A DNA stretch of 33,369 nt from Massalongia carnosa (GCA_965645245.1 OZ287070.1:3100001-3133369), one strand, 5' to 3'. Positions 4,873 through 33,369 are shown, numbered from the stretch's first letter. Notes: a model not told the origin generated them from the letters alone. Program-made: numbers and translations.

Positions 4873-5033
4873 TTTTGGAGGAGAGGGATTTGAATAGAGT
4901 AAATTTAAGTGTAGTGGTTGTATAAATTTGAATTGGGTGAAAAGAAAACGTTGCAAACAGTGCTATCAAAATGCTATGCTTTTTGATTGTCTTGAGATGT
5001 GAGATGATGAGGGATACCGTCTGGGACCTCCTC

Positions 5034-6986: not shown

Positions 6987-7095
6987 GGGGGGGGTTTTCT
7001 ATGTTGCGCCGGGGGGAATTTTCTATGTTGGCACCGGGGGTAATTTTTCTATGTTGGCGCCGGAGGAAATTTTATATGCTGGCACCGGGGGGGGG
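6987..7095. repeat. Four ~29-31 bp tandem repeats, probably subterminal repeats of the MULE
   Basis: Consensus ttttctatgttggc(a/g)ccgggggg(aa) repeated four times. Confidence 0.8.
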
Positions 7096-10677: not shown

Positions 10678-11065
10678 AGCGTTGTTGGTTGAGTTGTGAT
10701 AGATAAATGTAAGGTGTCCTTGAGAATTACATGAATTGGAAAGGCGGTCGTGTAACTAACTCGATTCTGCAGGAGCACATTGCCCAATTGAGTTTATTCC
10801 TGATTTTTAGTAACACATAATCCCGATCTGATTCAAGTGATCAAGTGATGTAACTACGAGAAGTGATCATGCGATAAGTAGCTTAGACCTACCATTGATT
10901 TTAAATTCTTAGCTGCCGTTCTGGAGGATTTTATTGATGTGTTCTAGTGTCGCGTACCGCGCTAACCGAATTAGGGTATTTTCCTGAATCCCCCATGTTC
11001 AAGAGTTATCGCGGTCGCTAGTCATCTCTAAGACCTCGACTGCTCAGCGTCACTCTTCCCCGATC

Positions 11066-13818
11066 ATGCCTTCTACGGAGCCATAGAAAAAACCAGGTGG
11101 TAGGCCTCGAAAGTACTCTACTGCTGATGAAGCTGCAGCGGCCAAGAGACGGCAAAGTCGAGGTTATTACCACAATCCATCGCGCCCGGTTGGTCTTGCA
11201 GGTCCCGTCGACTTTGATGCCTACGAGCCTCTACCTACATCCGATATCCCTAGCGACACCCTGCCAGCCATTGGTCTGCGAAGCAGCCTCCACATACCAA
11301 TCCCTCCGGATCGCGATATAGCGGAAGACTGTGAGGAAGAGCTGGAACCCGAAGCATTCCTAACCCAGATCAACCCCCCTCGAACTACAACTCCAGATTC
11401 CCTGCATGAGGAGCCCGAAATCATTCGACAAGTTGAGAAAATACGCACAGAGGAGGTGACAAACACTGAAGACGCAGAATTTGATGCGGAGGTCACGGCA
11501 CGCTTGGAGGAGTCGGCAGCCCATCTCGAGGCAGCAGCAGTGCTCCAGGCACTACGAATTGGGCAACAAGAGAGGCAGGAGAGCAGCAAGGCCGGGTCAC
11601 AGTATTCTGACTACGCCGCCTAGTAGTTCAGTGATGTCGAATCAGTAGCACCTAGACACAACAGAACACCGATTCATAGTCCACCGAATACAAATATACA
11701 ACAGGGCAGTTCACCGCATACTGCAGATACAAAAATACAGCATACCGCGTAGCGCGCAGAGTGCCCACATCGCAAATCTGAGCCCTGATCAACTAGAGAG
11801 CACATCCTCTAAGCTGGCAAAGTAGCTACGTAAATTCCGGTGCTGCACTCATGAGCAGCATACCGAAGCCGATCGCCAGCATGAAGAACACCAACAACGC
11901 CGAGATGTGCACTCAGAGTGCTCATCTATACCTGATATTACTTCCATTGTTAAACGGTTACACAATGGGGGCATTCCGCTTCCCGATGTCCTCAAAAGCC
12001 CCGGCCTGATGAGAGCCACCGATATCCAGATCGTCGGCTGCAAGGCGGCATTCGAAGGCACTGCTAGTGCTCGCCTGGACGAAGCCACTCCCCATAACGA
12101 TGGACTACCTCCGTGTCTTTGCCTGTCCAAGAAATACGCTACGAGTCGGAAGAATCGTCAACCAAGGGTTAGTTTCGACATCGACAGCACCTGTTGTTTC
12201 CCCAAGAGTCTCGGGTTTGCGCGTCGCGGGATAGAGTGGTTCCCCAAGGCCCATCCCGTCCTCAATCTCACGGGCGACATACACTTTGGGTTGAAGGTCC
12301 TGGTTACACGATCAAGGACAATCCATTCCTAAGCTATGTCCCGCTGCATAAGACACCCCACTACTGCTTTGGGTGCGTGGTTGGCATGATCGATCTTCTC
12401 ATTTTTATCTTCTTTCCCGCCCTGCACAAAGAGAACGATCATGAGCATACCTCGTATCTCAGTAAGTGCGACGAGCAGCTCTGGTTGGATGACATCCTCC
12501 TTCCCTGTATCACCAAGGTTGTTAAGTCTTCCAACATACTGCTGAACTATCCGGCCTCTTCTCGCATAGCCGACCTTGCATTCACGGCGATATCTGCAGA
12601 GAGCCTCAAACGGAAGGAGTCTGCCAACCAGCAGTTAGTTGCCCATACGATCCAGCCATGGTACCTCGATGAGCTCTTTACCTGGGTTGGTAGGACCATA
12701 GATGAGAATCCTAGGTTTCATCGGTTCCAAGGCGCAACACTGTTCACGCAGTCCAAGAGCACCAAGCTGGCAACTAATAACTCTACTGGTTTGGTCGAAG
12801 CATACAATGGCTGGAAGAGGCAGTGGCTGGATGCAGCAGATCCGGAATTCTACAATCCAGATCGCACCTTTGTGGACATTGCAAAGCAAATCACCTCATA
12901 GGACAGCGCGCTTCCTTATGATTAGATACAAGGGAACCACGAAGCCGAGGTGTTCCTGTGGAAGAAATGCTGCCTAGATGGGTATTGCAGGACGAGGATG
13001 ATCCTCAACCCGGATGGAAGCAAGGCTAAAGGGAACCCGAAGCGTACTGTATACTCCTCGGCTACCATGCGAGATACGATGAGCCAGACGCTGTTTGCTG
13101 CACCGCAGGGTGACGAGACCAAGGATGGGCTGATATATTCTCAGTTCTATATGCTGGCCAAGACTCTATTCGACTCTTCGAAAATGTACGTCTTTACTAA
13201 CGACTCAGTGGAGAACCTAGCCCTGTACTCTGGATATGTGCGTTCTCTGCAATAGGATGGCGGAGGTATCACGTTCTCTAGGGGCGTGTGCGAGTTTGCC
13301 TATCTCCACAGCAAGAAGCGGGCTCATGCAAACCTCATGGACAGTCGCTGGAAGTCTTATGGAGTGAGGGAAGAACATCGGATATCCCTAATCATGATGG
13401 TGGAGATATATGAACAGTGGTGCCAGTGGGACCTCTACGACGCAGACGACATAGCAGACATCCCGTCTCCACTGCCATATTACGTTGTACCTACAAGCGA
13501 CTTTGTATGCCTCCTCCACGCATAGATCAACAAATACTGCTTCCTGTTCAAGCATGTCCTTGCCCACACAACTAAGACGTACTCCCTGCCAGAGATGATC
13601 ATCATGGTTGTTGCGCTGCGGGGACTCCGCTTCTGCTACGGTGGAAATATGCTGGTGCGGGAGTTCCTACTGTTTAAGGACCGGTGGAGGGTTGTCCAAG
13701 GAGGGAAGACCATCGTCAAGGAAGGACTCGGGATGAAGGAGAGTATAGAGCTATCCAGGTTAGGGTGGTTCAAGCCTAAGATCAACTGGGAGACGTGGCG
13801 TCTAACCTATATGCTTAA
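11066..13818 (+). pseudogene. Family X copy A2 (two internal deletions, several CAG->TAG stops, retains the native stop codon)
   Basis: Colinear with 26268-29278; deletion near 11731; at 13800/13801 it jumps to the last 18 nt of the gene (tctaacc.atatgcttaa). Confidence 0.9.
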
Positions 13819-13914
13819 TTGAATTGGGGGCTCCATTCAATAAAACTCTTTGTGATCAGATTTACTTAAGCGGCGTACTAGTCATCTGGGGGGGCCCCAT
13901 TCAATTAATTTCAA
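13819..13914 (+). other. 96-bp 3' terminal module of family X, variant A
   Basis: Gap-free alignment to 30549-30644; homology stops after TTTCAA. Confidence 0.75.
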
Positions 13915-13974
13915 CCCAATTCATTTACAAGAAGAGCCCAGATTTATTCCAGAAACTTGGAGCAGATAGCCTCC

Positions 13975-15012
13975 TGCCAGGGTTGCTAGCACCCGCACCA
14001 TGTGCTCATGGGATTTCGGGACCTGGTTTGAACTGAATTCGGTGTTGATACTGGGACGAATGTTCTCCAGTGCTCTTTGACTGGGGACCCTTATTCGTCC
14101 AGATCTTCGAGGTTCGATGGGCTGGCGAGGAATGTCCTCCACTTCATCGGAGTCACTCTCCTCCCCATTCTCCTCTTCTCGGCCTCCCCCCGAAGCATTT
14201 ACTCCTATTGGATGTAGCATTATCCGTGGTGCTGGTGGGGCCGCTTCATTTTGAAATTCCGAACTTCTCGATAATTCAGAGCTCGGAGTTTTCGGAGACA
14301 AAGAAGATGGCGGATTATGACTTTTGTTTTCATCAATAAAATCATCTGGGTCATCAAACAAAGCATCATCGTCTCCCTCCCATGGAATGTCGGCTAGGTC
14401 CTATGCCTTTTTGTCCTTGGAATCATATATATTGCCTTCGTCGACGGTGATATCGCGACAAACTTGGACTTTTCCAGTGAGAGGATCGTAAATTCGATAC
14501 TGATTGTTTCCTTTATACCCAACAAATATCCCCCGCCAGGACTGATCGTTCAGCTTCTTGCGCTTCTCTTTTGGGATATTTACCCACGTCCTTGCCCCGA
14601 CCGTTCTCATATGGCCGAGGAAGGGTTTCGCATTGTTCATGCGTTCATATGGAGTGACCTTCTCGACCCCAGGACTTCTATTCTTGATGTACCCGGCCAT
14701 CTTCAGGACCTCCCCCCAAAGGGACTTTGGGACTTTTTTAGCCTTCATCATGGACCGAGTGGGGACCATGAGGGTATAATTTTGCCTTTCGGCCTTCCCA
14801 TTCTGTTCTGGCACATTTGGTGCCCGGGCCTCCCACTGGATGGCTTCACTCTTTAGGAATTCCTGAAAGTCACCACTGGTGTACTCCCCTCCTCCATCAG
14901 CTCGGAGTATCATTATTTTCTTTCCCGATTGATTTTCTATCCATGTCTTGAACTGCTTAAAACATTCGAAGGTTTGACCCTTTGTTTTCAGCAGGTAGAT
15001 CCACACTACCCC
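13975..15012 (-). pseudogene. Ty1/copia integrase core and downstream linker fragment
   Basis: WIYLLKTK...ILRADGGGEYTS...PEQNGKAER...LWGE...GIFVGY...YRIYDP; internal TAG at 14401; no LTRs; boundaries approximate. Confidence 0.9.
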
Positions 15013-15213
15013 TAACTGTAGAAATCGCCCGTTGTGCGGCGTAACACGAAACGCGTAAGGCGTGATTGGCTGATTTCCCCCCGCTTCGGCGTCGGCACGC
15101 ACCGCTGCACCGTAAAACGTGCACCATAACACGAGAATCCCCGTCGCTGGCAACGCGACCTCTAATCGCCCCACGAGGGAGCTGGGAAGCGGCTAGGGCA
15201 TAGGGAGAGGATC

Positions 15214-18200
15214 ATGAGCGCCCGTTTGGTCTATCTGCCGGAATGGCGGGTGCTGGTGTGCGAAGAGTGCGGCTTTGGCCTCCGTCCCGGTCGCGGCGTT
15301 TGGGTTCGGCACCTGAGGCAAGCACCGCATTGCTTGAAGGGCCCCGAGCTCCGGGCCCAGGTCGAGCTGTTCGAGAGATACGACCTCTGCGCGCCGGAGC
15401 AGGAGCTCGCGCAGCTGCCGGCCCATGCGATCCCCGGATTACGGCTCCTCGACGGTTTCCAGTGCTTGACCTGCGCGGCTGGTCTTACCCAAAGCCTCCA
15501 AGCTATCGAACGGCACGTGTCAAAAGCCCACCAGCTCAAGCCTGCATGGCATAAGAAGAACCCCCTCTGGCGGTCGTGCAAACTCCAGACTGTCTTTGCC
15601 GAGAATCGCTTAGTTCGGTATTTTGTGGTAGAGGATGAGGGAAGAGCAGAGGACCAGGGAGCTCCGGATACAGGAGCGCGGATAGCTTGGGTTCAGGGGA
15701 CGAAGACTTCTTTCAGCTGCTCGACCAGGACGCCGCTGTTGCAGAGGAGGATGCTAAGGCAGAGGCCAACATCGTTCATGGCTTCGATGGTCACCGATCC
15801 GCTGTGGTGCCGTGGCTGAGACGGACGGGCATCGAGGAGCACACGCGGGGCTTAAAGAAGGACGAGATGCACGCCTCTTTTGCAGTACTGAAGGCTGCCG
15901 AGAGCGAGCCCGAGCCGTTCCTGATGCTAGAGGTGATGGACGAGATCTTTCTAGAGGCGCACAGCTGGTGCTTCGATGGCCCCAACTGCATGCTGACCTG
16001 GCCACGGCAGCTGGCATTGAGCCGCTTCCATACTGCCGCTGCCCCAGGGCAGAAGACGCGCGTTCGACCCGAAGAAGGAGCCTAATACGCTCAAGACCAA
16101 CTTCGGCTACTGGAAGCAGTTCTTGACCTACAGCTACCGGGTGGCCTACTGGGGCGACCACTTCACCGCGGCCGACAGCGACCAGCGGACCCCCGAGAGC
16201 CATATCCAGCTCACGGGTGCTCAGGAGAATGCGTGGGAAGTGGCTTTCCAAAATGCCGTCGAGCAAGACGGGCCTGCGCTGAGAAAGGCCATGTCGGTGC
16301 TCTCAATAGCGCTGATCTGCCACGAATTTGGAGGCAATCGGTACAGCTCCTCACTGCTCAGCTTCTGCGCCATGCTCAGCGTCAAGCCACACACCAAGAC
16401 TTGGAAGGAGCCGGGCAATTACAATAGCTGCTTGTCCGGCGTAATCTGGATTGTGCAGCTAATCATCTTCCACGCCAGCGCCTGTCTGGAGAAGGCGGAG
16501 CTAGGGGATACACTCGAGCGCATTGAGCAGTATTGCGGGCAGTTCTTGAAGCAGGACACCGAGACTCCTATGGGCGAGATCCTCGGCTGGCGCTTGCTGC
16601 TGTTTACTGTCTCGAAGGCGGTTGTTGGGCCGCACCAAGCGCAGTGGGATGTGGACGAGAAGGTCCTGACCTACCGAGACGTTGATTTGCATATGGATCA
16701 CGTGCCGCGGCTCTTACTCTCCGAGTTCCAGCAAGCCCAGCACCTACTCTACGACGAGCTGATATTCGGGACCCAGAACCTTCCGCGGATGCGTGCTTGG
16801 GCATTAAAGGACAACTTAGACGCCGATGCCTTTGGCTAGTTCTTGGCCAGCACCGGGTGAACTTTGAGCTGGTAAAGCCACTGGCGAGGTCTTTGCTAAC
16901 CGTTATCCAAGACTCGAAGCCGTTGCGGGACTCGTTCCTGGATGCCAACGCGGATGGCGCTAAGGTCTGGCGGGAGAAAGCGATTGAACGGTATGAGGCC
17001 GTGGCTAACGAGTTCCTGATAAGGCTCTTAGTCTTGATCCACATGGGCTCTGGCCAGCCTCTGCGCGAGAGTGAACTGTTCTCCGTCACCTGGCGTAACA
17101 CCCAGCGGCGGCGAAGCGTCTACCTCAAGCACGGGCTAGTCATGCTGCACACCACATACCACAAAGGTCAGCAGCAGACGGGCAAGTTTAAGGATAATAT
17201 CCGGTTCTTGACTGCACCTATTGGAGACCTCTTGCTGGACTACTTGGTAGTTGTAGTCCCGCTCCTCCAGGTCTTCCTCCGCCGGTCTGCCCCGCATGCC
17301 CTTATCTCTCCGTACTTGTGGTGGCAAGACGGCAAGGTCTGGGCGGAAAACCGGCTCACGCGGTGCATGGAGCAGGCGTGTAGTCGGGCCAGCGTCCCCC
17401 GGCTACACATTGCCAACTGGCGGCAGATGACGGTCAATATCGTCAAAACTAAGTTTGCAGCTGACGTTGGGTGCTTTGAGGTTGACGACGGGGCTAACGA
17501 CGAGGATGCAGAAGAGATCGAGGCGGACATTCGGATTATGACCAAGCAGCGGAGCCATAGTACGCGGACTGTCAACCGGGCATATGCAAACCAGCACAAT
17601 GCTAACTTTGGGAACGTGTGGGATGGCCTTATCCGCCGGAATCTGCGTGCTTCAACTCTGTGGAAGGACTTGTGGGGGCTTGACCAGCTGCTTGGACCTG
17701 CTGGGAAGAGGAAGCGGGATGGTGAAGACATTGGTGGTCCGCAAATGCTCAAGAAGATCGCCATGGGGGTCTACCGGCCACGGAAGAAGTGGTCAGCTGC
17801 GGCTCTGCTGAACAGTGCAAGAAAGCTGTACCTAGATAACACGCTGAAGTGGAAGTCAGCAGCGCAGGAGCGGGCTATGACTACTATCATGTCATGGACT
17901 GAGCAGGTGGTAGTTATCATGGCTACTGGCGAAGGGAAGAGCCTGCTGTTCATGCTGCCTTGCATCCTCCCGGACGCTGGGGTGACGATCTTGGTCTTGC
18001 CACTCGTATCTTTACGAGGAGATCTCCTCCGCCGAGTTGGAGAATTGGGGATCGATTACTTGGTGTGATCGCCTAGCGAGCAAAGAGATGCGCCTTTGCT
18101 GTTTGTCACAGTTAAAGCAACATGTACGGAACAGTTTCGGACTTACGCCCACAAGCTCGCGGCTACGCAAGACCTCGGGCGCATTATATTGGACGAGGCT

Positions 18201-19532
18201 CACTTGACTATCACAGCGTCCGACTATCGCGAGGCTATGGTTGACCTCGCCCTGATCCGCAACGTCCGTACGCAGTTTGTTTACTTAACAGCTACTCTAC
18301 CACCGACAATACAAGCTAGATTTGAAGAGCAGAACAACTTGGTGAACCCCAAGGTGATTCGAGCATCGACGAACCGGCGAAATCTGTTCTATATGGTACA
18401 GCGGGCCACTGGGCGAGGAAGTCTGCTCGAAGAGGGCACGCGGAGGGCAAGGGAGGCGTGGGAGAATAGCCAGCTCTTGGATCGGGCTCGAGATAAGATC
18501 ATCTTATACGTTCGGACAAAGGAAGATGCTGCTACGCTGGCTGAGCTACTCTGCTGCTCCCAGTACACAGCTGATATAGGCACGGCTGAGCAGAAGGAGG
18601 AGCTGCTGAGAATGTGGCCTGCCTCCTCGGACCAGCCGTACATGGTGGCCACGTCTGCATTAAGCGCTGGCTTCGACTATGCCCACGTTCGCTTAGTTGT
18701 GCATGTCAAGGAGCCGTCGTCTTTAGTCGACTTCGCCCCTGAGTCTGGTCGGGCCGGGCGGGATAGAAAGGAGGCGTACTCGCTAGTCCTTCTCTCACCT
18801 ACATGGAAGCCGCAAGCCGCTGAGAGAACCGCGGTCGAGAGAAGAGCGCTGCACCGCTACCTCCTCGGGCAGGACTGCCGCCGGGCATGCTTGAGTGAGC
18901 ACCTCGACTCGGAGCCGTATTGGCGACAGTGTCAGGCTGACGAGGACGTTGTATGCGACGTATGCAGCGCCGGCCCAGCTCTCGCTCCGTCTTCCGCTCC
19001 GTCTCCCGAGCCGGCTCTTCAGTATACTGGCAGTGCAGCTATTCAGGAGAAGCGACGTCGAGCCGAGCTCGAGTTAAGCGGGTACCAGGAGGACCTGCTC
19101 GCAGTTCAAGGCACGCGTCTGCTCTGCCGGGCATCCGACGATGCCTGAGACCACGTCTTCCCTACGTGCTGGCGTCGGTTCGAGTTCTTTGAGGCTCGCA
19201 ATCGTGTTAAAAAAGCGAAGCAAGGAGGGCAGTGGATTACTCCGTACCACGCATGCTACTGGTGCTATAATCCCAAGGCGGTCTGTCCGCGAGCGGACCC
19301 AAAGAGTAACTGCCAGAGCTGCCTCTACGCGGACATTGTCATGCCGCTCTGCTATGGCATCTTCCACGGAGGCGGGGCCGAGCAGTGGCTAGAAGAGCGG
19401 TTTCAGCGGACGTTTACAGACGTCGATGACTTTCTTAAGTGGTGTGGTCAGGCAGCTAGCTTCGGCGGGGGTAAGGCAATCTGGGGAGTCTGTGTAGCTG
19501 CGGCTGCCTTAATTCAATTTAAGTTATACTAG
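15214..19532 (+). pseudogene. TLH: Telomere-linked RecQ-like helicase (TLH family), ~1440 codons: N-terminal Zn fingers, YR-like domain, SF2 helicase, Cys-rich C-terminus
   Basis: CEEC..HLRQAPH and CLTC..HVSKAH; Walker A ATGEGKS, LDEAH, TAT, ESGRAGRD, CRR..C..CDVC. Three frameshifts (~15680, ~16060, ~16845) and TGG-derived stops at 16837, 18066 and 19146. Confidence 0.88.
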
Positions 19533-20007
19533 GCTAGGTGTAAGGTAAAACGGGAGTTTAGACTAGGGTTGAGTTAATTATAAATTTAAAGTATAAAGTA
19601 TCGAATAGAGAAGGATTAATTATGAATAGGCAAATAGGCCTTAGGGTCGATGCCTACTCCCCAGATTTCCTTCGCTTTTGCCTTTGCCTCAACTAATATA
19701 CGGGCGTGAGTAAGCCGAGGCACAGCCTACGACCCCCCCCTCGGCCGCTGACCCAATCCCTGGCGAGGTGCCCACGCCAGCCAGACCTAGGGTATTACAT
19801 GATAGCCTAGATCCTACAAACACTGATTCTCCTCTATCCGAGCGGACGGCTCTACAGCTAGCCAAGCAGGTCCAGAAATTTTCGGGCTGTACACACGAGG
19901 AACATGCGGAGGCAGAAGGCAAGCACCAGACACATCACCGACGCCCCGATGTACATTCAGAGTACTTCTCTATTCCGGGGATCACCTCGATACTTAGGGG
20001 GAGCTAT

Positions 20008-22758
20008 TGAAGAAGGGTAGTCATGCGTGCTAATGGAAGGTGGTGGTACGTAATGATAGATGGCGAACTGAGCAGTGAACACACACACACACAAAACGAC
20101 TGAATGGACCTTCAACTGCATAGACATGAAAAGAACTCGACGACTGAACGACTAGTTGATGCATGAAATGAACATGGGTCGATGACTACGTGACACGACG
20201 ATGATGATGACAGCGTAGGTGATAGAAGATGATGTCCGGAGATGATGAAGAAAACGCCAGCAAAAAACCCGTTTTATCCCCACACAGGCCTGCCATGTCA
20301 CCTGACCATAGATGACACATGTCGCCCCACCACATAGCCTCACACCCCAAAGATGCCGTCCCCTGGCATCTGTCAACACTTCGCCAGCTCACCTCTCCTG
20401 ACCGATCAGATCTCGTCTCTGAGCCCTCGCCTCGCCTCTAGTCTGTCCGCCTTACTAGTCTGCCCTGCGGGCCAATCACAGGTCACATGATCACTTCACA
20501 TGTGAAAAACACGACTCACATCGACCCCTTTCCGCTGCTGAATAGCCTCTATCATCGTCACTATTGCCTGCCAGCCCTCGGGCGTGGACACGAACTGAAT
20601 AAATCGTTGTTGACTGACTGATGGGTCTGTTGACGGTGATCCGGACGACTGCATGGAGTTAGCCTGAGGCGGAATGAACGCACCGCTCGCCCGATAGGCC
20701 TCAAATGTTGACGACGTGACCGTTTCAGGTAATGGCAAGGCATCAACCGGTGGTGCAGCTGGTAGGGCTGATGATAACGACGGAGGTGCTGACGATGCTG
20801 GTGCTGACGCAGACTGATTAGATATGCCGGGCCTGTCAAATGGAGCGGAACAATATGAAGCCGGAGGTGCAGGTAGTGTCCAGCGCGTACGTTTTACACG
20901 TCTAGCCCGTGCGTGCCTAGCTCGGTCTGACTACCATGGCCCTGACCTACATGGAGGTGGAAACGACCTCACCCGATTGGCTGACACGGTGGCACTAGCT
21001 GATAACCGTGCGAGAATTTCTTTCACTTTTGTCAGCAACTCGGTCAAAATCTCTCGACCCACGACAGTGTGCAGCAATATTTTCGTGTTATCAGCACCTG
21101 CTAGTTGATTTAGGGCTTCCGAAAGGGGAAGGCTAGACAGTCGACATATAGGAACTATCCAGGTGGAGGACTGCAAATATAAAAACCCTAGTGCTCGACG
21201 AGAGATAGCTGACTGAATGAGCGGCATTGTAGACAGATATTCATCGACATTTGCCGAAACGAGGTCACTAATTGAACGAATGATGACGCTGAATGTGTTG
21301 AACGTGCTGAACGAGAAGGTGCTAAATAGTCGTCAATTTCGACGTAGCTGACGTCCGGAAGACGTCCGGCTATAGCTAGCTCCACATTGGCCTCAGAGGC
21401 TGAATGAAATGATGTTGATTTTGGCCCTTCCGGCCCACGTGTAGATGACTCAATTGCTGACTCAGTATCAGCTGACTCGATAGCGGTGATGACAGGTGCC
21501 GAAGACACGGCAGAACGAAAAGCGGTGACGGGTGACGGTGGTGCGGTAGACGGTGCAGACATGAACGGTGCAGACGGTGCAGACGGTGCAGATATATTGA
21601 CCGGTTGTGACACGGCGACTGCTGGACAAATAGGCAGCGATTCTGGACAGTTTGTATGGGCCACATAGGCCATTTGTACCCCATATTTCGCGAACAATTC
21701 CACCATGCTCATGTATGACCTTGTTGATGCAACCGAGGCAGTTGATGATGACACTGACGGTGCTAATGAATTGACAGACGATGCCCTCGACACGGAGATG
21801 GACCGGCGCTGTCTCGACAGATGACGTCGCTGTCGCTTGCTCATAGGTGCGCTGGGTGAAGAAGATGAAGCAGATAAAGGTTAAGATGTAGATGGAGGTG
21901 TACTAGTGCTAGAGCTTGGTGCACTAGTGGTGGACGTGGAAGTGGACGACTCGAACGACTCGGACGACTCGGAGGCAGAAACGGATGCTCTTTTGGTAGG
22001 CCTACCACGTTTCGCTCGATTATGGTGTCGCTGTCGTTGACGTGCTCGTTTTGATGGTAGTGGAGTAGGTGAGGTCGGTATAGTACTCTCGGACACGGTC
22101 GCATTGGCCCAAATGCAGAAGGTAATGCACGAGGACATGGCCATCAGCGCAGTGAAAAGAATGATTAGAGAGTTCCTGGAATGTACGTCTAAAACGCATG
22201 CAGTAGGTGCTGGGATGGTAACGGAAGCGGTAGCGGTGGTAAAGAAGCTGATGGGGGCCATGTTGCTCGATTTGGTGCTGAAGGACTCGGTCGTGCACGG
22301 TCGGAGGTAGAGTAGTCAGAGTGATCAGAGGTGAAACAAGGAGGTTTTTCGACGTTTGATGCTCAGTTCAACCGCTCAATTGTACCAGTACAATCATATA
22401 TCGCACCGTGGTCGCGAATGAAGATTGGTAGTCGTGCGTGCTAATGGAAGGTGGTGGTACGGGATGATAGATGGCGAACTGAGCAGTGAACATACACACA
22501 TACACAAACGTCTGAATGGACCTACGACTGTATAGACATGAAATGAACTCGACAACTGAACGACTAAACGACTAGCTGATGCGCGAAAAGAACCTGTATC
22601 GATGACTACGTGACACGACGATAATGATGACAGCGTAGGTGATAGAAGATGATGTCTGGAGATGATGAAGAAAACGCCAGCAAAAAACCCGTTTTATCCC
22701 CACACAGGCCTGCTATGTCACCTGACCATAGATGACACATGTCGCCCCACCACACCAA
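20008..22758 (-). mobile_element. Non-autonomous LTR element without pol; complete LTR 20008-~20520, truncated LTR 22419-~22754
   Basis: Direct repeats 20008-20334 and 22419-22754, both starting TGAAGA; minus-strand PPT-like GGAAAGGGG just before TGTGAG at 20520; degenerate Ser/Thr/Pro-rich ORF inside. Confidence 0.75.
20496..22261 (-). pseudogene. Degenerate Ser/Thr/Pro-rich ORF of unknown function with an N-terminal hydrophobic segment
   Basis: 22261-21881 and 21844-21188 are in the same frame across one TAA; further ORF pieces run to 20496. Confidence 0.45.
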
Positions 22759-22882
22759 GCCGGAGGAAGGCCACTGCCGGATGTCCTCAGTAACAGCAAC
22801 AGCCTTGGATTTGCATGCCGAGGTGTCGACTGGTTTCCTAGAGTCTACCCTTTACTCAAACTTACGGCGAATATACATTTTG

Positions 22883-23327: not shown

Positions 23328-24339
23328 TGTAATACGGATGGCGTTAGAGGGATACGTGATCGCCTATGGCGGTTGCGGGATTAAATAGCGTGGACCATGC
23401 CGTAGTACGAAGTCGAATAAGCCGTCGAGGCTGACACACTGCCATCTTGCCCCGAAACTTCGGAGTTATTGTTATCACGTTCTTCACTACTTACAGATCA
23501 AACACCTGTCGAGGCCGTGGTGGTAGATTGCCATGGAGTGTAAGGCGGACTCCTGTGGAGACGCCGAGGAACTCTATATGGGATCTACTGGCCTACTCGG
23601 AGCTACTGGATCTCTTGATGGATCAAGAGAGGTAGCAGGAGGCACGGCTCGCTGGACGCAGCTTGAGCTAGGCTCCCCGGTGTAAACTTCAGCTTCAACC
23701 TTTATTACTACGTTGGTAGTGATGTCGGCTGAATGAACCTACATGACCTCGTTGTCTAGACCTTGTGTCTAGAGGCAGGTCAGCAGTGTAGCGAGGTATT
23801 CAGTCGGAGGTAACCTTCCATCACTAGGTAGTGGTGACGGCGAAATGAAGCTACATAGCCTGAGGCATGTAGTGAGGGATCTAGCCGGGGGTGGAATTGT
23901 TCTACCTTGCAAGGGAAGGTCTAGAAGGCTGCTCGAGGCTGACTAGATAATCCAGCGAACGCCGAGTTCGTGGATGGATCCTGAGGGATGGTTGGATGTA
24001 ATGCGATAAAGTCGGATGTGGATTGCAAGGCTGTAATTCTCGCAAGGCTCCTAAGGTTCCAAGGCTCCCAAGGCTATAGGCTTGGGGTGAGTAGGATAAA
24101 TACCAGAACGAATCTTGTAGTATTCGTTAGCAATTAGTCTTTATTCTATGAACAACCTACGTTTGGGTCTCGGACGAGATCTCTTGGTCTAAGCACTTCC
24201 ACATCCATTAGTTCTTTGGATCACGTACACTCTCGGAGACTAGCACGTAGTAGCTATCTTCCTCCTCTCACGCTGAGCATTTCCCCTTTCGAGATCAGTG
24301 TCGCTCGTGATAAGCTTACTGGTCTCGTAGCCCATTACA
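23328..24339 (+). mobile_element. Solo LTR (1012 bp)
   Basis: TGTAAT...ATTACA termini; 5-bp TSD AAGAA at 23323-23327 and 24340-24344; second copy at 32213-33220. Strand inferred from a TATA-like GATAAATA near 24095. Confidence 0.92.
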
Positions 24340-24735
24340 AAGAACTTCTATCGTCATTCTCATTCAGTCGTTAACCATTGTAAGCGTTGTTGGTTGCGTT
24401 GTGATGATTCAAAGAGGAGAAGTCGTGTCACTCGATTCCGCCGGAGCACCGTAACGCGCTAACCGAATTCGGGTTTTTTCCTGTATTTCTCATGTTAATA
24501 CTAATCTTAACCACGAGAAGTGATCGATTATGCGATGATATGAATGATGTGATTATGCCATGAGATCATGAGATGAGTAACTTAGACCTGTCATTGATTT
24601 TACATTCTTAGCTGCCGTTCTGGTAGATTTTATGGATTTTTTCTCGTGTCACCTACCGCGCTATCCGAATTAGGGTTTTTTGCTAAATTCCTCATCTCTA
24701 GGACTTCGACTGCTTAGCGTCACTCTTCCTCGATC

Positions 24736-25850
24736 ATGCCTTCTGCGGAGACATTGAAAAAATTATAAGGTAGGCCTCGAAAGTAATCTACTGCTGATGA
24801 AGCTGCAGCGGCCAAGAGACGGCAGAGTCGAGGTTATTACCACAATCCATCGCGCCCGGTTGGTCTCGCAGGTCCCGTCGACTTTGTTGCCTACGAGCCT
24901 CTACCTACATACGATATCCCTAGCGACACCCTGCCTGCCATTGGTCTGCGAACCAGCCTCCACATACCAATCCCTCCGGATCACGATATAGCGGAAGACT
25001 GTGAGGAAGAGCTTGAACCTGAAGCATACTAAGGATAATCCCCCCCGAACTGCAACTCCAAATTCCCTACACGAGGAACCCGAAGTCATTCAAAAAGTTG
25101 AGAAAATAGGCACAGAGGAGGTGACAAGTACTGAAGACGCTGACTATGATGTGGAGATCACGGCACGCTTGGAGGAGTCGGCAGCCTATCTCGAGGCAGC
25201 AGCAGTGCTCCAGGCACTACGAATTGGGCAACAAGAGAGGCAGGAGAGCAGCAAGGCCGGGTCACCGTATTCTGACTACGCCGCCTAGTAGTTTAGTGAT
25301 TTGAATCAGCAGTCCCTAGACACAACAGCACACCAATTCATAGTCCACCGAATACAGATATACAACAGGGTAGTTCACCGCATACTGCAGATACATGACG
25401 CAGTCACAGCAGGACTTCCAAGGCTCAGTCAAGTAGCACCAGTAGTAGACGTGGGACTTCGTTCCCAACGCAGATAAACACGCTATTATCATGGATGAAG
25501 CCTTTGACAGGTGTCGATTCTAACCCTACTTCGCCCACTTCACGCCCATCTCCAACCATTGCTATATCTACACCTACGCCCTCGGATCTTCATCAACCTG
25601 CTGGATCCGTCGAAGCACCACCACCCATGCCTTCAAGAGAACCCCCCCTAGGCCAAAGTCCACAACTAGCAGTACAGCAGGCACCGCGTAGCGCGCAGAG
25701 TGGCCACATCGCAAATCCGAGCCCTGGTCAACTTGAGAGCACATCCTCTAAGCTGGCCAAGCAGCTACGTAAATTCCGGTGCTGCACTCATGAGCAGCAT
25801 ACCGAAGCCGATCGGCAGCATGAAGAACACCACCAACGCCGAGGTGTGCA
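24736..25850 (+). pseudogene. Family X copy B1 (5' quarter only)
   Basis: Colinear with 26268-27388; breaks at the same nucleotide as A1 (cgccgaggtgtgca|agcgttg). Confidence 0.85.
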
Positions 25851-26267
25851 AGCGTTGTTGGTTGAGTTGAAATAGCTAAATTTAAGGTGTCCTTGAGAAT
25901 TACATGAAATGGAAAGGCGGTCGTGTCACTCGATTCTGCCGGAGCACCATACCGCGCTAACCGAATTCGGGTTTTTTCCTTTATTTCTCATGTGAATCCT
26001 AATCCTAACTACGAGAAGAAATCGATCATGCGATGTGAATGATTTTATCATGCGATGAGATCATGCGATGAGTAACTTAAACCTGTCATTGATTTTACAT
26101 TCTTAGCTGGCGTTCTGGTGGATTGTATTGATGTTTTCTGGTGTCACGTACCGCGTCGTGCGCGTTAACCAAATTAGGGTTTTTTCCTAATCCCTCATTG
26201 TTCAGAGCTATCGCGGTCTCTAGTCATCTCTAAGACTTCGACTGCTCAGCGTCACTCTTCCCCGATC

Positions 26268-29200
26268 ATGCCTTCTACGGAGCCATTGAAAAAACCAGGT
26301 GGTAGGCCTCGAAAGTACTCTACTGCTGATGAAGCTGCAGCGGCAAAGAGACGGCAGAATCGAGGCTATTACCACAATCCATCGCGCCCAGTTGGTCTTG
26401 CAGGTCCCGTCGACTTTGTTGCCTACGAGCCTCTACCTACATCCGATATTTCTAGCTACACCCTGCCTGCCATTGGTCTGCGAACCAGCCCAGACATACC
26501 AATCCCCCCGGATCGCGATATAGTGGAAGACTGTGAGGAAGAGCTTGAACCCGAAGCATACCTAACCCAGGACAACCCCCCTCGAACTGCAACTCCAAAT
26601 ACCCTACACGAGGAGCCCGAAATCATTCGACAAGTTGAGAAAATACGCACAGAGGAGGTGACAAATATTGAAGACGCAGACTATGATGCGGAGATCACGG
26701 CACGCTTGGAGGAGTCGGCAGCCCATCTCGAGGCAGCAGGAGTGCTCCAGGCACTACGAATTGGGCAAAAAGAGAGGCAGGAGAGCAGCAAGGCCGGGTC
26801 ACTGTATTCTGACTACGCTGCCCAGCAGTTTAGTGATGTCGAATCATCCGCATCTAGACACAACAGCACACCAATTCATAGTCCACCGAATACAGATATA
26901 CAACAGGGCAGTTTACCGCATACTGCAGATACACACCGCAGTCACCGCAGGACTTCTAAGGCTCAGTCAAGTAGTACCAGTAGTAGACGTGGGACTTCGT
27001 TCCCAACGCAGAGAAACACGCTATTATCGTGGATGAAGCCTTTGACAGGTGTCGATTGTAACCCTACTTCGCCCACTTCACGCCCATCTCCAACCATTGC
27101 TATATCTACACCTATGCCCTCGGATCTTCATCAACCTGCTGGATCCGTCGAAGCACCACCACCCGTGCCTTCAAGAGAACCCCCCCTAGGCCAAAGTCCA
27201 CAACCAGCAGTATAGCAGGCACCGCGTAGCGCGCAGAGTGGCCACATCGCAAATCCGAGCCCTGGTCAACTAGAGAGCACATCCTCTAAGCTGGCCAAGC
27301 AGCTACGTAAATTCCGGTGCTGCACTCATGAGCAGCATACCGAAGCCGATCGCCAGCATGAAGAACACCACCGACGCCGAGGTGTGCACTCAGAGTGCTC
27401 ATCCATACCGGATATTACTTCCATTGTTAAAGGGTTACACAATGGGGGCACTCCGCTTCCCGATGTCCTCAAAAGCCCCCGACTGATGAGAGCCACCGAT
27501 ATCCAGTGCGTCGGCTACAAGGCGGCATTCGAAGGCACTACTATTGCTCGCCTGGACGAAGCCAATCCCCATAACGATGGACTACCTCCGAGTCTTTGCC
27601 TGTCCAAGAAACACGCTACAAGTCGGAAGAATCGTCAACCAAGGGTCAGTTTTGACATCGACAGCACCTGTTGTTTCCCCCAGAGTCTCGGGTTTGCCCG
27701 TCGCGGGATAGAGTGGTTCCCCAAGGCCCATCCCGTCCTCAATCTCACGGGCGACATACACTTTGGGTTGAATGTCCCTGGTTCCACGATCATGGACAAT
27801 CCATCCCTAAGATATGTCCCGCTGCATAAGATATCCCACTACTGCTTTGGGCGCGTTGTTGGCATGAGCGATCTTCTCATGTTTATCTTCTCTCCCGCCC
27901 TGCACAAAGAAAGCGATCATGAGCATACCTCGTATCTCAGTAAGCGCGATGAGCAGCTCTGGTTGGATGGCATCCTCCTTCCCTGTATCACCAAGGTTGT
28001 TAAGTCTTCCAACATACTGCTGAACTATCCGGCCTCTTCTCGCATAGCCGACCTTGCATGCACGGCGATATCTGCAGAGAGCCTCAAACGGAAGGAGTCT
28101 GCCAACCAGCAGTTAGTTGCCCATACGATCCAGCCGCGGTACCTCGATGAGCTCTGGACCTTGGTTGGTAGGACCATAGATGAGAATCCTGGGTTTCATC
28201 GGTTCCAAGGCGCAACACTGTTCACGCATTCCAAGAACACCAAGCTGGCAACTAATGACTCTACTGGTTTGGTCGAAGCATACAATGGCTGGAAGAGGCA
28301 GTGGCTGGATGCAGCAGATCCGGAATTCTACAACCCAGATCGCACCTTTGTGAACATTGCAAAGCAGATTACCTCACAGGACAGCGCGCTTCCTTATGAT
28401 CAGATACCAGAGAACCACGAAGCCGAGGTGTTCTTGTGGAAGAAGTGCTGCCTAGATGAGTATTGCAGGACGAGGATGGTCCTCAACCCGGATGGAAGCA
28501 AGGCTAAAGGGAACCCGAAGCGTACTGTATACTCCTCGGCTACCATGCGAGATACGATGAGCCAGACGCTGTTTGCTGCACCGCAGGGTGACGAGACCAA
28601 GGATGGGCTGATATATTCTCAGTTCTATATGCTCGCCAAGAATCTATTCGACTCTTCGAAAGTGTACGTCTTTAATAACGACTCAGTGGAGAACCTAGCC
28701 CTGGACCCTGGATATGTGCGTTCTCTGCAACAGGAGGGCGGAGGTATCACGTTCTCTAGGGGTGTGTGTGAGTTTGCCTATCTCCACAGCAAGAAGCGGG
28801 CTCATGCAAACCTCATAGACAGTCGCTGGAAGTCTTATGGAGTGAGGGAAGAACATCGGATATCCCTAACCATGATGGAGGAGATATATGAACAGTGGTG
28901 CCAGTGGGACCTCTACGACGCAGACGACATAGCAGACACCCCGTCTCCACTGGCATATTACATTGTACCTACAATCGACTTTGTATGCCTCCTCCACGCC
29001 CAGATCAACAAATACTGCTTCCTGTTCAAGCATGTTCTTGCCCACACAGCTAAGACGTACTCGCTGCCTGAGACCATCATCATGGTTGGAGCGCTGCGAG
29101 GACTCCGCTTCTGCTACGGTGGAAATATGCTGGCGCGAGAGTCCCTACTGTTTAAGGACCGGTGGAGGGTTGTCCAAGGAGGGAAGACCATCGTCAAGGA

Positions 29201-30548
29201 AGGACTCGGGATGAAGGAGAGTATAGAGCTATCCGGGTTAGGGTGGTTCAAGCCTAAGATCAACTGGGAGACGTGGCGACTAGCAGCACCACATGGTGAG
29301 AACATCCTGGTTGGGAACATGCTTATGCACGAGGAGTATAAGCGAAGGTGGAGAGTAGTAAAGGATCTCCGCGACGTCTTCATTCGTTTCAACCAAGCGG
29401 CGTCATGGTATGAGAGGTACAATGTGCAGGAGAACCCTCGATTGCTTAAGTCCTGGCTGGAGTACCTTCACGTTCTTAACCTCGAGCAGTTTGACGCAGA
29501 TATCTGGAAGGCCATGCACAAGATCAACAAGCAGACTATGGAGCTAAGACGCGAAGGTGCAAAGCCGCCTGCAGAGTTTAGGTTCTGCTACCGTGACATG
29601 AAGAGGATGTTCCTAGTCGACGCAGTTACTGGACAGCCAGGTTCACCGCACATGGACACCGGGAACAAGATGCGGTTCGACAAGGCTATAGGTCTCCTCA
29701 ACTTCCTATTCCTATCCGATGAGGAAGAGCGGCGTGGCTGGGGTAACAAGCCGTACCGCGTGATCCTGAACAAGACCTTCGTGATGCTAGAACAGCGTCT
29801 TGGGTACGACCTGGCGGATCGATGGCTTAATGACTTCTTACACCTCATCCGGCTGACGCACTGGATCCTTCCATACCCGTCTAATGGGGGTCTCATTACG
29901 TCGACCAAGACCAGTCAGAGCCGGGGACTTAGGCGGCAGATGATGTGGTTCTCGATGGTCTACGCAGACCCAGCGCACGCCGAAGTCCCGTTCAAGCACC
30001 CTCCTTCAACGCTGTATAGTCTTTTGAGCCGTGCCCGGGCACAAACATTTGGACGTTCCCAGGAAGAGCCGCGATGGGGCACGGCACAGCTCCTAGCAGC
30101 ATTCAAGGTGGAGGGGGTCCTGGCCAGTGGGCAGGAGGATTTCTGGGTTGCCGGAAAGATGAGCATAGGATATGGGGGACTCGAGCCTCTCTGGGAGCGT
30201 GGGCATCCACCGAGGCTGAAGATGCTCGAGGAGATCCGGCAGAAGAGCCTAGATGAGCTTGAAGAGCTGATGGCTGGACAGAGTGTCGAGCCGGCAGCTA
30301 ATGGCGCGGCGGCAGACGACGAGCCAGAAATTGACGACGTAATAGATCATCAAGCCCAGGGTGGCGAGGCTGGTAGGGGGGCCGATGCACCAGCTCCGCG
30401 TGCAGCTGCCATTGCGGCTGTTGCTGCTGGCCGTAGCGTGTTTGCCGCGTTTGCCAGGAGTTCTAATGCTAGCCAGAGTGGTGACAGTCTAGCTGCTGGG
30501 AGTAACAGTGGCAGTAGCGTGTTTGTCCCATCTAACCCATATGCTTAA
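26268..30548 (+). pseudogene. Family X copy B2: full-length ~1426-aa uncharacterised protein with one in-frame TAG
   Basis: The 315-aa and 1054-aa ORFs share a frame. The only interruption is TAG at 27213-27215, where A1 and B1 have CAG. N-terminal GGRPRKY AT-hook-like motif. Confidence 0.9.
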
Positions 30549-30644
30549 ATGCACCGTAGGTACGGTGGAATATAACTCTTAGGGACCAGATTTACTTAAG
30601 CGGCGTACATGTCATCTGGGGGGGTACGGTGGAATAACTTTCAA
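30549..30644 (+). other. 96-bp 3' terminal module of family X, variant B
   Basis: Hairpin caccgta-gg-tacggtg; exact 14-bp direct repeat ggtacggtggaata at 30559 and 30623; core shared with 13819-13914. Confidence 0.75.
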
Positions 30645-31214
30645 GGGTTGGGTGCTATTCTACCCTCTGGGCCGATTTTCTTGATTCAAGCGGTCATAGA
30701 TAGCCCGTCTTCGAAATTGTAACATATACTTCAAGGGAAAAATTCCGATCATTCCTTGATTTTAGAAAAATCGCGGCGAAAAGGGTGTTTGAGGAGGTTT
30801 TGAGCGGTGAAAGTACAGGAACATCAAAACGCGCCGCCGCTTAACATCAGCAGATGATGAGTACCGTGAAATATAATGTATATATAAATTGTACAGTTTC
30901 ACTCGGCGATTCCGAATATGCAAAAATGAACGTTGTCGCATTAAAATATAGTTGTCAATTCCATAAAACCATTCAACTTCATTCAACATGAGATCCCGCT
31001 TGCGCCCACTTTGCGAATAAGCGAGAGCCCATATCCCTAACCACACAATGGAAAGCAAAACTTTCGCACTTTTTAGCTAGCACTAGAAATAGCATTCGTT
31101 ACCAATACAAGCCCTCAATAGTCATTGTGATCAGGTAGAATTGCTCCCCGACTCTGTAGCTATCTTGGCCGAAAGTTATATCGTCCCTTCTGTTGTGGCT
31201 GCATTGTTGCAACC

Positions 31215-32212
31215 ATGGGGAGCTCTTTTGTCATGCCCAACGACGCCCTCCCCGATTCACTAGACGAGCATCGTCACTTCCTCACCAATGTGTTTAATAA
31301 CATAATTAACTGCGAGGCATATCAGAAGCAAAGACCTATGAAGGTTTAGTCTTACACCCTGTTACTCTCCAGTATGCTCAGCCTACTGGAGAAGATGCGC
31401 AACCAGCCCACGATTGATCAGCTCCAAGCTACCATCAACCAAATAAAGAACACTACAGAGCAAACGCTCACTAAAGTCACCTATGTCGAGCGAAAGCAAG
31501 ACACCCCCCGCACAACACCCACTACCTCCTCCGCGGCCACTACTGGCTACAAGAGGACGATGACCTGGGCAGAACGGGCAGCCTTTGCTGCCTCGGCCCC
31601 AACGATCTCTACACTTTCGGGGACGTCCATCCCTGCTCCTATACTAGAAGAGAAAGCTCGTGAAATCGTCGTCAAACTGAACAACGAAGCCATAGCAAAG
31701 GATCTGGCCAAACTGGCCTCCTCAGCGCTCAAAGAAAGAATCAACGCGGCAATATCTAACGCGTTAAAGGATCATAACAACACGAGAATTCCGACCAATC
31801 AAAACGCTCCGGCCCCCCCTATTTCCAATGGCACAGCCACGGCAGCAGCCGTAGCAATAGCAGCAAGGGTCCTCCCTATCGGAGACCTACAGGTAATAGT
31901 CAACAACGCCTCAGACACGGAACGCTAAGAAAAGACACCCGATGGGCCATCAGCCTATCGAGCAAAAGCTACTATAATACAGCCAAGCTTCGGTTTAATC
32001 GCGCACTTTGTACCGGCTAATGTAAGCATGACAGACATCAAGGAACGCCTCTGGGAGGAAAATAAGTCACATATGCCCGTTAGGAATAGGGTAACAGAAG
32101 TAGAATGGTTGTCCCGCACGAGTAAGATAGGAGCCACAGCTAGATGCATGGTGGTATACTTTGAGAACGAATTAGACTGCAACACCATTTTGGCCTCGCA
32201 GCTATATTTGGA
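31215..32212 (+). pseudogene. Non-LTR retrotransposon (Tad1-like LINE) ORF1, truncated by the LTR insertion
   Basis: Coiled-coil-like region, TWAERAA, REIVVKL, ARVLPIGDL, FGLIAHFVP, CMVVYF..E..CN.IL; TAG at 31347 and a frameshift near 31925. Confidence 0.7.
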
Positions 32213-33220
32213 TGTAATGGGCTACCAGACCAGTAAGCTAATCACGAGCGACACTGATCCCGAAAGGGGAAATGCTCAGCGTGAGAGGTGGAAGATAGCT
32301 ACTACGTGCTAGTCTCCGAGAGTATATGTGATCCAAAGAACTAATGGATTTGGAAGTGCTTAGACCAAGAGATCTCGTCCGAGACCCAAACGTAGGTAGT
32401 TCATAGAATAAAGACTAATTGCTAACGAATAATACCGGATTCGTTCTGGTATTTGTCCTACTTACCCCAAGCCTATAGCCTTGGGAGCCTTGGAACCTTA
32501 GGAGCCTTGCAACGCACATCTGACCTTATCGCCTTACATCCAACCATCCCTCAGGATCCATCTACGAACTCGGCGTTCGCTGGATCATCTAGTCAGCCTC
32601 GAGCAGCCTTCTAGACCTTCCCTTGCAAGGTAGAACACTTCTACCTGCGGCTAGATCCCTCATTACATTGCTAGCCTGCCTCTAAACATAAAGTCTAGAC
32701 GCCGAGGCTATGTAGCTTCATTTCGCCGTCACCACTACCAACGTAGCGATGGAAGGTTACCTCCGACTGAATCTCTATCTACACTGCGGATCTGCCTCTA
32801 GACACAAGGTCTAGACCACAAGGTCATGTAGGTTCATTCAGCCGATATCACTACCAACGTAGCAATAAAGGTGGAAGCTGAAGTTTACACCGGGGAGGCC
32901 GAGCTCAAGCTGCGTCCAGCTAGCCTTGCCTCCTGCTACAACTCTTGATCCAATCAAGAGATCGAGTAGCTCCGAGTAGGCCAGTAGATTCCATATAGAG
33001 TTCACGGCTTCTCCACAGGAGTTCGCCTTACTCCATGGCAATCTACCACCACGGCCTCGACAGGTGTTTGATCTGTAAGCAGTCTAGAACGTAGTAACAA
33101 CTAATTCGGAGTTGTGTGGCAAGGTGGCGTCGTGTCAACCTCGACGGCTGTGCGACTAAGTACTACGGCCTGACTCATGCTAGTTAATCCCGCAACCGCC
33201 GTAGGCGATCACGTATCCCT
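32213..33220 (-). mobile_element. Inverted second copy of the 1012-bp LTR, lacking its last 20 bp
   Basis: Reverse complement of 23348-24339 with substitutions and indels; intact terminus TGTAATGG at 32213. Confidence 0.92.
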
Positions 33221-33369
33221 TAGGGTTAGGGTTAGGGTTAGGGTTAGGGTTAGGGTTAGGGTTAGGGTTAGGGTTAGGGTTAGGGTTAGGGTTAGGGTTA
33301 GGGTTAGGGTTAGGGTTAGGGTTAGGGTTAGGGTTAGGGTTAGGGTTAGGGTTAGGGTTAGGGTTAGGG
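33220..33369 (+). repeat. Telomere, (TTAGGG)25
   Basis: Perfect TTAGGG array to the end of the window, G-rich strand running outward. Confidence 0.99.

Follow-up and report, generated by a model that had tools for sequence, protein, structure and literature searches.

The window analysed in this work is a stretch of 33,369 nucleotides from Massalongia carnosa (GCA_965645245.1 OZ287070.1:3100001-3133369), with positions counted from its first letter. Because it closes with 25 terminal TTAGGG repeats, the window is a fungal chromosome end. The gene under study is an open reading frame (ORF) of 1426 codons at 26268-30548, which reads toward the terminal telomere. Comparison of the window with itself, using blastn, profile matches and alignment of the junctions, located five pieces of this gene, all of them on the plus strand and arranged in a head-to-tail array. 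These pieces, with the helicase pseudogene and the telomere, are as follows:

9307-10676, plus strand: 5' fragment of copy A unit 1, which begins about 80 bp inside the unit and stops at the coding position equivalent to 27388
10677-13894, plus strand: decayed gene of copy A unit 2, which opens with the unit start AAGCGTTGTTGGTTG
15214-19531, plus strand: pseudogene for a telomere-linked helicase (TLH), directly downstream of copy A, with the Pfam domains OrsD/DUF3505, DEAD and Helicase_C
19717-20010 and 22795-22881, plus strand: diverged remnant C, covering family profile positions 274-371 and 451-479
24382-25849, plus strand: 5' fragment of copy B unit 1, running from the unit start AAGCGTTGTTGGTTG to a cut at the coding position that corresponds to 27388
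25850-30624, plus strand: copy B unit 2, the only near-full copy, containing the ORF
25850-26267, plus strand: leader of copy B unit 2, formed by the 5' end of the unit and 418 bp before the ATG
26268-30548, plus strand: the ORF of 1426 codons in a single frame, which is interrupted by one stop at 27213 and ends with the stop at 30546
30531-30624, plus strand: 3' flank common to copies A and B, with 80% identity to 13801-13894
33220-33369, plus strand: telomere, (TTAGGG)25, the terminal repeats of the window

The initial annotation of this stretch had described five copies of the gene. Five pieces are present, but they are not five genes: one is near-full, one carries a 1248-bp deletion, two are 5' fragments and one is a diverged remnant. 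The decayed gene of copy A unit 2 contained five stops and one frameshift in addition to the deletion, which corresponds to 29283-30530. Three units (10677, 24382 and 25850) started with the 15-mer AAGCGTTGTTGGTTG, for which chance would give 0.02 matches. Two of these starts, 10677 and 25850, came directly after a unit truncated at the identical coding position, and the one at 24382 followed unrelated sequence. Since the upstream unit was cut at the same coding position in both cases, copies A and B have inherited one structure composed of a truncated unit and a unit. Homology between copies A and B stopped at 30624; a loose contig end was found there in the public runs X2 and X5, and other genomes continued like copy A. 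Just past the stop codon (30549-30650 and 13810-13920), both copies retained a core of about 45 bp, CAGATTTACTTAAGCGGCGTAC...GGGGGGG, which is presumably the origin-like 3' module of the initial annotation, and the short direct repeats around this core differed between the two copies.

The conserved ORF and its decay

The encoded protein starts with an AT-hook-like GRPRKY motif. A disordered linker leads from there to a Cys/His cluster and on to a conserved core of about 920 aa, and the protein closes with an acidic tail and a conserved GSxFxPS motif at the C-terminus. The following sites were located in the ORF, with residue numbers given in the numbering of the 1110-aa core:

26301-26318, plus strand: GRPRKY
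27213-27215, plus strand: in-frame TAG
27318-27338, plus strand: CCTHEQH
27651-27665, plus strand: FDIDS, with D147, D149 and S150 invariant even at 20% identity
28344-28367, plus strand: TFVNIAKQ, with N at position 380 in the window copy and D in at least 90% of the family, and with K383 invariant in alignments A1 and A2
28614-28640, plus strand: YSQFYMLAK, with Y471 invariant in all three alignments
28833-28862, plus strand: SYGVREEHRI, with R544, E546 and R548 invariant in all alignments

The single plus-strand frame with its one TAG and the coordinates of the last three motifs agreed exactly with the initial annotation, and its proposal to repair the TAG to CAG was borne out by the two paralogous units that cover the site, both of which have CAG. 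The three motifs, for which conservation in homologues had been left to be checked, proved to be the best conserved of the family and held invariant or near-invariant residues, most of which were kept at 20-62% identity. Within YSQFYMLAK, residues Y467, Q469 and K475 were also invariant in alignments A1 and A2, with Q469 and K475 conserved to at least 90% in A3. SYGVREEHRI contained the invariant or near-invariant family residues S540, G542, R544, E545, E546, H547 and R548. Across the alignment spanning 20-62% identity, the invariant residues were G107, D147, D149, S150, K340, K343, G464, Y471, R544, E546, R548 and G663. From this pattern, D147, D149 and S150 of FDIDS are the best candidate for a metal-binding site. 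The short GSxFxPS motif at the extreme C-terminus (30510-30533), which follows the variable acidic tail, was kept in members down to about 55% identity and may be a docking motif.

Copy B departed from family residues conserved to at least 90% at four sites (P207S, F226S, D380N and W441S), and the dN/dS ratio between copies B and A was 0.62-0.71. Both copies in the window are decaying, and the ORF would be a recently inactivated copy of the family. Repeat-induced point mutation was considered as the cause of the divergence between the copies and rejected, with a transition/transversion ratio of 1.4-1.8 and no CpA bias.

The search for related proteins returned 124 homologues with 28-74% identity, all annotated as 'hypothetical'; the named ones belonged to Leotiomycetes and Dothideomycetes, and Sordariomycetes appeared in a later search. 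Clustered at 50%, the representatives matched by the profile search numbered 1955 at a cut-off of E<=1e-3 and 607 at E<=1e-30, and a search seeded with a Sordariomycete-like member returned only four proteins. Judged from these matches, the protein belongs to a very large and widespread family of the Pezizomycotina, the filamentous ascomycetes. No fused longer forms of the protein were found, and no relative was found in viral contigs.

As the initial annotation had stated, the window protein showed no reverse transcriptase (RT), DDE, HUH, tyrosine recombinase (YR) or helicase domain, with zero families matched in Pfam. At E<=0.001, none of the 35 diverse members scanned had a Pfam domain in its core, and at E<=10 over 18 and 39 members Pfam gave singleton weak matches only. 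NCBIfam gave no match for the protein, PHROGs gave singleton matches only, and PDB profile searches with alignments A1 and A3 gave matches at chance level only. The ESM Atlas had no usable match for the window protein or for P0017. With about 2000 clusters at 50% identity, the family is a sizeable gap in the annotation of folds or families.

Open, intron-free frames of 1166-1448 codons with no stop were found in 15 of the 24 genes checked. Between intact copies the dN/dS ratio was 0.09-0.13, including an unsaturated pair with a dS of 0.24, which shows that the intact copies are under purifying selection. In a FastTree phylogeny of 36 rows, the Dothideomycete, Leotiomycete and Sordariomycete sequences were separated with one exception (Zopfia), and the copies within one genome were almost identical. 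Because the tree follows the classes and the copies of one genome are nearly identical, the phylogeny points to old, mostly vertical inheritance together with homogenisation within genomes. Many near-identical copies were present in each named genome, with at least 13 on different large contigs in Hyaloscypha variabilis, where the locus-tag numbers suggest that the copies lie at contig ends.

Telomere linkage, partner gene and 10-kb unit

Telomere linkage and the pairing with a telomere-linked RecQ helicase gene are the dominant property of the gene, and the initial annotation had missed it. The comparison covered 80 related loci, all from short-read metagenome assemblies and many of them redundant. 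Seven of the 80 ended in (TTAGGG)n repeats, 1.5-7 kb downstream and on the strand of the gene, and none had such repeats upstream or inverted. These seven loci represented distinct lineages with 27-62% identity, and together with the window they gave eight of eight cases in which the gene points to the telomere.

Directly downstream and on the same strand, 19 of the 80 loci carried a TLH-type ORF, from an ORF family to which the helicase gene of the window also belongs. Among the loci whose downstream sequence reached 1.5 kb or more, the count was 18 of 41; in two loci such an ORF stood upstream, on the opposite strand. All of the downstream TLH-type ORFs tested (7/7) had the OrsD domain, the identities of the family protein and its partner co-varied in 10 of the 10 pairs compared, and the pairing held over 27-71% identity. 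In the window, the TLH pseudogene was composed of an OrsD/DUF3505 zinc-finger N-terminus, a RecQ-type DEAD and Helicase_C core and a Cys-rich C-terminus. It was broken into several frames and was GC-rich (GC3 0.63-0.71), and the best PDB sequence matches of its helicase pieces were RECQ5, BLM, WRN, RECQ1 and E. coli RecQ. In some lineages the family gene was the sole intact gene, or the terminal gene with no TLH gene (L061, L062 and L080). In one distant lineage (L068:7810-9270), a SNF2-related helicase domain was seen in the downstream ORFs in place of the TLH-type gene.

The extent of the unit was seen in a block of 10,020 bp, which was 99.99-100% identical in five contigs (L008-L012) and 99.95% identical in L007. 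The block contained a 478-bp leader, a gene of 1432 aa, a TLH-like gene of 595 aa, 3.1 kb of non-coding repeats and telomere repeats. It always began at TTGAAGCTCG, and this start was joined to at least six different left flanks: flank X cut at three points, flank Y cut at two points, a third flank and, in L007, a short telomere tract beyond which a second unit began. The telomere repeats were terminal in L012, and in L008-L011 they were an interstitial (TTAGGG)2 followed by other DNA. An interstitial TTAGGGTTAG was present close to the left border of the unit in L060, L062 and L064. An exact proximal end with variable truncation of the proximal DNA is the junction pattern of terminal addition to eroded ends, and the window arrays of distally truncated units matched this pattern of the 10,020-bp unit. 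Because its exact 5' end is joined to many different flanks, the gene sits in a discrete repeat unit and is element-like rather than an ordinary single-copy syntenic host gene. This accords with the description of the protein as a multi-copy, element-like orphan in the initial annotation.

Several further features of these loci were recorded. Past the two interstitial telomere repeats in L008 (10064-14811) and L010 (10144-13785) lay a 999-aa RVT_1 ORF on the opposite strand, as would be expected if a MoTeR/FoTeR-like telomeric retrotransposon were attached on the distal side of the unit. L060, L062 and L064 carried a head-to-head TAGGGTTA-TA-CCCTAACC just inside the telomere, about 100 bp before the 3' end. 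L030 and L031 were 99.5% identical over 9.7 kb; L031 ended in TTAGGG repeats and L030 continued with GGGTTCCGGTCC-like repeats, a difference that could come from a variant terminal repeat or from an artefact of the assembly. In the L016 lineage, a stretch of about 180 bp directly upstream of the gene was repeated in tandem several times in L017 (5314-6768), which recalls the tandem repeats of variable number that precede both TLH genes and telomeric retrotransposons.

The window also contained other repeats and transposable elements:

1-987 and 5324-5878, plus strand: two pieces of a Gypsy integrase/chromodomain gene (Pfam)
1085-4956, minus strand: DIRS-like element with RT, RNase H and tyrosine recombinase (Pfam), which interrupts the Gypsy gene
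14401-15174, minus strand: copia-type integrase fragment between copy A and the helicase gene (Pfam rve and SH3_retrovirus)
20003-22754: insert of 2.4 kb that splits remnant C, bounded by direct repeats of about 330 bp (20003-20334 and 22414-22754)
23328-24339, minus strand: solo LTR-like (long terminal repeat-like) repeat of 1012 bp with TG...CA ends and the 5-bp target duplication AAGAA, forming the left arm of an inverted repeat and not part of the element
31374-31928, plus strand: ORF of 184 aa in a separate high-copy repeat outside the unit, with no Pfam match
32213-33219, plus strand: second copy of the LTR-like repeat, forming the right arm of the inverted repeat and cut 21 nt short of its end by the telomere repeats

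In the DIRS-like element, RT and RNase H were matched at 2101-3672, and the tyrosine recombinase match at 1085-1900 was weak. The direct repeats bounding the 2.4-kb insert were 89-94% identical to each other; the 218-aa ORF within it (21188-21844, minus strand) had no Pfam match, and the insert may be a small LTR-type element. A tandem repeat of 25-26 bp in about four copies was present at 6987-7093. The summed contig depth was high over 31184-32206, which spans the repeat of the 184-aa ORF; the contigs of the public runs are short unitigs, and their depth was not taken as copy number. Rfam and tRNA scans found nothing.

Copy B was flanked by an inverted repeat of about 1 kb (23348-24339 versus 32213-33220). 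It was considered as a pair of terminal inverted repeats (TIRs) and rejected, since its arms are two LTR-like copies and the left one has a target duplication and an empty site of its own. The empty site was seen as a joint from 23322 to 24340 in contigs of three of the four public runs (X2, X3 and X5). This was the only large inverted repeat, which leaves the gene with no TIRs, as the initial annotation had also found. Because the telomere repeats cut the right LTR-like copy 21 nt early, this chromosome end was truncated and then healed.

Origin and possible role of the unit

The best-supported conclusion is that the family gene is a conserved and previously unremarked second gene of TLH-containing, Y'-like units. 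With a probability of roughly 0.6, the ORF is a recently inactivated copy of a telomere-linked ascomycete family which, together with a TLH-type gene, forms an end unit of about 10 kb, a counterpart of the TLHcr and Y' units that has been multiplied among chromosome ends. Such a unit would spread by addition to eroded or broken chromosome ends, via the capture of unit-length DNA or cDNA, via break-induced copying, or via a cut made by an enzyme that the element encodes, and addition would be followed by homogenisation among the chromosome ends. The protein may be a DNA-binding, metal-dependent nucleic-acid enzyme, either a nuclease or a nucleotidyl-transferase, because it combines an AT-hook-like basic N-terminus and a Cys/His cluster with invariant D-x-D, K-x-x-K, Y and R-x-E-x-R residues. 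It would work with the helicase in the propagation of the unit or in a back-up maintenance of chromosome ends.

Several observations weigh against this interpretation. That the protein is an enzyme is predicted from residue conservation only. The gene is often linked to a telomere, yet either not in every case or not always at short range: neither a TLH-type ORF nor a telomere was seen in 18 of 41 loci whose downstream sequence reached 1.5 kb or more, and copy A in the window lies 19 kb from the chromosome end. The pairing is not general to all TLH-bearing fungi, because in M. oryzae, as far as the accessible text goes, tandem repeats and not a gene lie directly upstream of TLH (PMC1635262). 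The partner of the L012 lineage kept its OrsD N-terminus and its Cys-rich C-terminus and was missing the helicase core. Contigs L007-L012 hold one unit from six samples of one study and are not independent genomes, and because all of the loci are short-read metagenome assemblies, the series of left junctions could partly reflect strain alleles. In the window itself, interstitial telomere repeats were absent at the unit junctions, and remnant C has lost its 5' end, something that precise 5' addition fails to account for.

In S. cerevisiae, the Y' elements are oriented subtelomeric helicase units, found in tandem arrays with short telomere tracts between them and amplified among chromosome ends. 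They have no counterpart of the family protein, and their helicases are only distantly related. A parallel with the subtelomere domains of yeast has been drawn, and the TLH genes of M. oryzae also face the telomere (PMC1635262). The TLH systems compared were TLH region I of M. oryzae, TLHcr of F. oxysporum, the DHX_G198 repeats of C. higginsianum and BcTLH of B. cinerea Vv3, each to the extent of the accessible portions of its source. The TLH regions of F. oxysporum measure 6-13 kb and lie in arrays flanked by telomere repeats (10.1101/2024.02.27.582403), the subtelomeric repeats of C. higginsianum are oriented, measure 11-18 kb, contain the helicase with DUF3505 and occur at all 24 ends (PMC5576322), and B. 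cinerea has a 15.5-kb subtelomeric 'Helitron-like' repeat (10.1101/2022.03.07.483234). Like the unit described here, these regions are multi-copy and telomere-adjacent with a fixed orientation, and the 3' end of their gene for an OrsD/DUF3505 and RecQ-type helicase faces the telomere. They also form arrays with telomere repeats between units and include truncated copies; of the units described here, telomere repeats on the left side were seen in L007, L060, L062 and L064 and were absent between the units of the window. The same portions mention no second large conserved gene upstream of TLH, whereas here a domain-less protein of about 1400 aa is the constant partner. Since the family gene has no Pfam domain, annotation of the 11-18-kb repeats by domains would not have seen it. 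The accessible literature on TLH genes, on 6-18-kb TLH regions and on 'Helitron-like' repeats does not describe the family; the supplementary figures on B. cinerea (10.1101/2022.03.07.483234), which possibly show a homologue as a 'captured gene', lie outside this scope. 'Bcin11g06560' had no mention in the searchable literature.

Instead of a gene of a spreading unit, the ORF could be a domesticated host gene for a chromosome-end maintenance or regulatory factor, such as an AT-hook DNA-binding regulator, which became multi-copy through subtelomere duplication and has no part in spread. The purifying selection, the phylogeny largely congruent with the fungal classes, the concerted evolution, and the basic N-terminus with its Cys/His cluster all suit a host gene, and TLH genes have been discussed, in the accessible part of one study, as possible factors in telomere crisis (PMC1635262). 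Yet the gene is absent or decayed at many ends, including both copies in the window, plain segmental duplication would not be expected to leave an exact 5' end joined to many flanks, and invariant acidic, basic and Tyr residues over about 900 aa look enzymatic rather than regulatory. A host gene of this kind is therefore considered unlikely, though it deserves attention.

A bolder extension of the preferred reading, in which the ORF belongs to a multiplied chromosome-end unit, treats this unit as an autonomous chromosome-end element that is based on DNA, comparable to HeT-A/TART but non-retroviral. Its machinery would consist of the protein and the RecQ-type helicase, and it would have a nuclease or primase-polymerase of a new fold. 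Such an enzyme would generate or copy unit-length DNA with one exact end and one telomere-repeat end. The D-x-D, H, D and K-x-P-F motifs may recall primase-polymerases of the archaeo-eukaryotic primase (AEP) superfamily, a resemblance that no search supported. FDIDS (D147 and D149), H182, and D380 or D251 are conserved in the same order as the AEP motifs hhhDhD, sxH and D; no Pfam family of the AEP superfamily was matched at E<=10 over 18 and 39 members, and the PDB profile searches likewise returned no primase. This extension is quite doubtful. If it were true, an element added to eroded ends would both spread and cap chromosomes.

The exact proximal end with variable proximal truncation is also the junction pattern of telomeric retrotransposon arrays, and the unit could accordingly be an RNA-mediated passenger, with a unit-length transcript copied in trans by the RT of a telomeric retrotransposon, the cDNA joined to chromosome ends and the protein carried as cargo. 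Y' elements are mobilised by Ty1 in yeast survivors. Both genes of the unit are intron-free, and the opposite-strand RVT_1 ORF lies just past its telomere repeats in L008 and L010. As in MoTeR, FoTeR, HeT-A and TART, to the extent of the accessible descriptions, the arrays are terminal and head-to-tail with telomere repeats at the junctions, and FoTeRs co-localise with TLH regions in F. oxysporum (PMC12857005, accessible part). Unlike the telomeric non-LTR retrotransposons, neither the protein nor the 10-kb unit has an RVT domain, and the coding strand runs toward the telomere, opposite to the RVT_1 ORF past the unit in L008. Moreover, no poly(A) or other mark of retroposition was found at the unit ends, and priming on the 3' OH of a chromosome end would need RNA antisense to both genes. 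We regard a passenger of this kind as very unlikely.

The initial annotation had compared the protein by eye with Rep_trans and MOBT initiators and had proposed a eukaryotic rolling-circle element; in that scheme a non-HUH initiator would nick at the 5' end of the unit and the neighbouring helicase would unwind to the other end. One exact end 5' of both genes with a downstream helicase gene does give a layout like a split RepHel, and the D, Y, K, R and E residues that do not vary would suit a nuclease or a transesterase. Rep_trans proteins are about one quarter of the length of the family protein. The likeness to Rep_trans (RepC/RepD/NicK) and MOBT is limited to the order in which three conserved elements follow each other, first the acidic strand, then a Tyr-Lys and last an Arg/Glu motif, with no sequence similarity: over 18 and 39 members at E<=10 no Rep_trans (PF02486), HUH or relaxase family was matched except a REP_ORF2-G2P singleton (E 0.61, 1 of 39 members), and the PDB profiles gave none. 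Helitrons encode a single RepHel protein with an HUH nuclease and a Pif1-type helicase, and they have 5'-TC...CTRR-3' termini with a 3' hairpin and insert into AT. The unit resembles them in its one defined 5' end, its helicase and the apparent 'capture' of genes, and, in the accessible text of the sources, classifiers of transposable elements have labelled subtelomeric TLH repeats Helitron-like. It differs in that the family protein has no HUH or helicase domain and the neighbouring helicase is a separate gene of RecQ type, whose core is missing in some lineages. Nor are the ends of Helitron type: the unit opens with TTGAAGC in the L012 lineage and with AAGCGTT in the window, it runs out into the TTAGGG repeats of the telomere on the far side, and it is attached to chromosome ends rather than internal sites. 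The rolling-circle proposal is thus highly improbable. The transposase of a cut-and-paste TIR transposon is hardly credible. The large size of the protein, its many copies and an invariant D-x-D that lies on a hydrophobic stretch and is followed by further acidic residues would suit it, but no TIRs or target duplication were found, the sole large inverted repeat is the LTR pair and the seven telomere-bearing loci had none, no DDE family was matched and the orientation to the telomere is constant (8/8).

TLH genes have been known in fungi for more than two decades, but no function or way of spreading has been assigned to them. Beside the telomere they are accompanied by a second protein, which is much larger, strongly conserved and in some cases present there on its own. 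The family was missed by domain-based annotation and provides a new component for knock-out, localisation and assay, and because the unit meets variably eroded flanks with an exact 5' end, the movement of subtelomeric units becomes a testable question.

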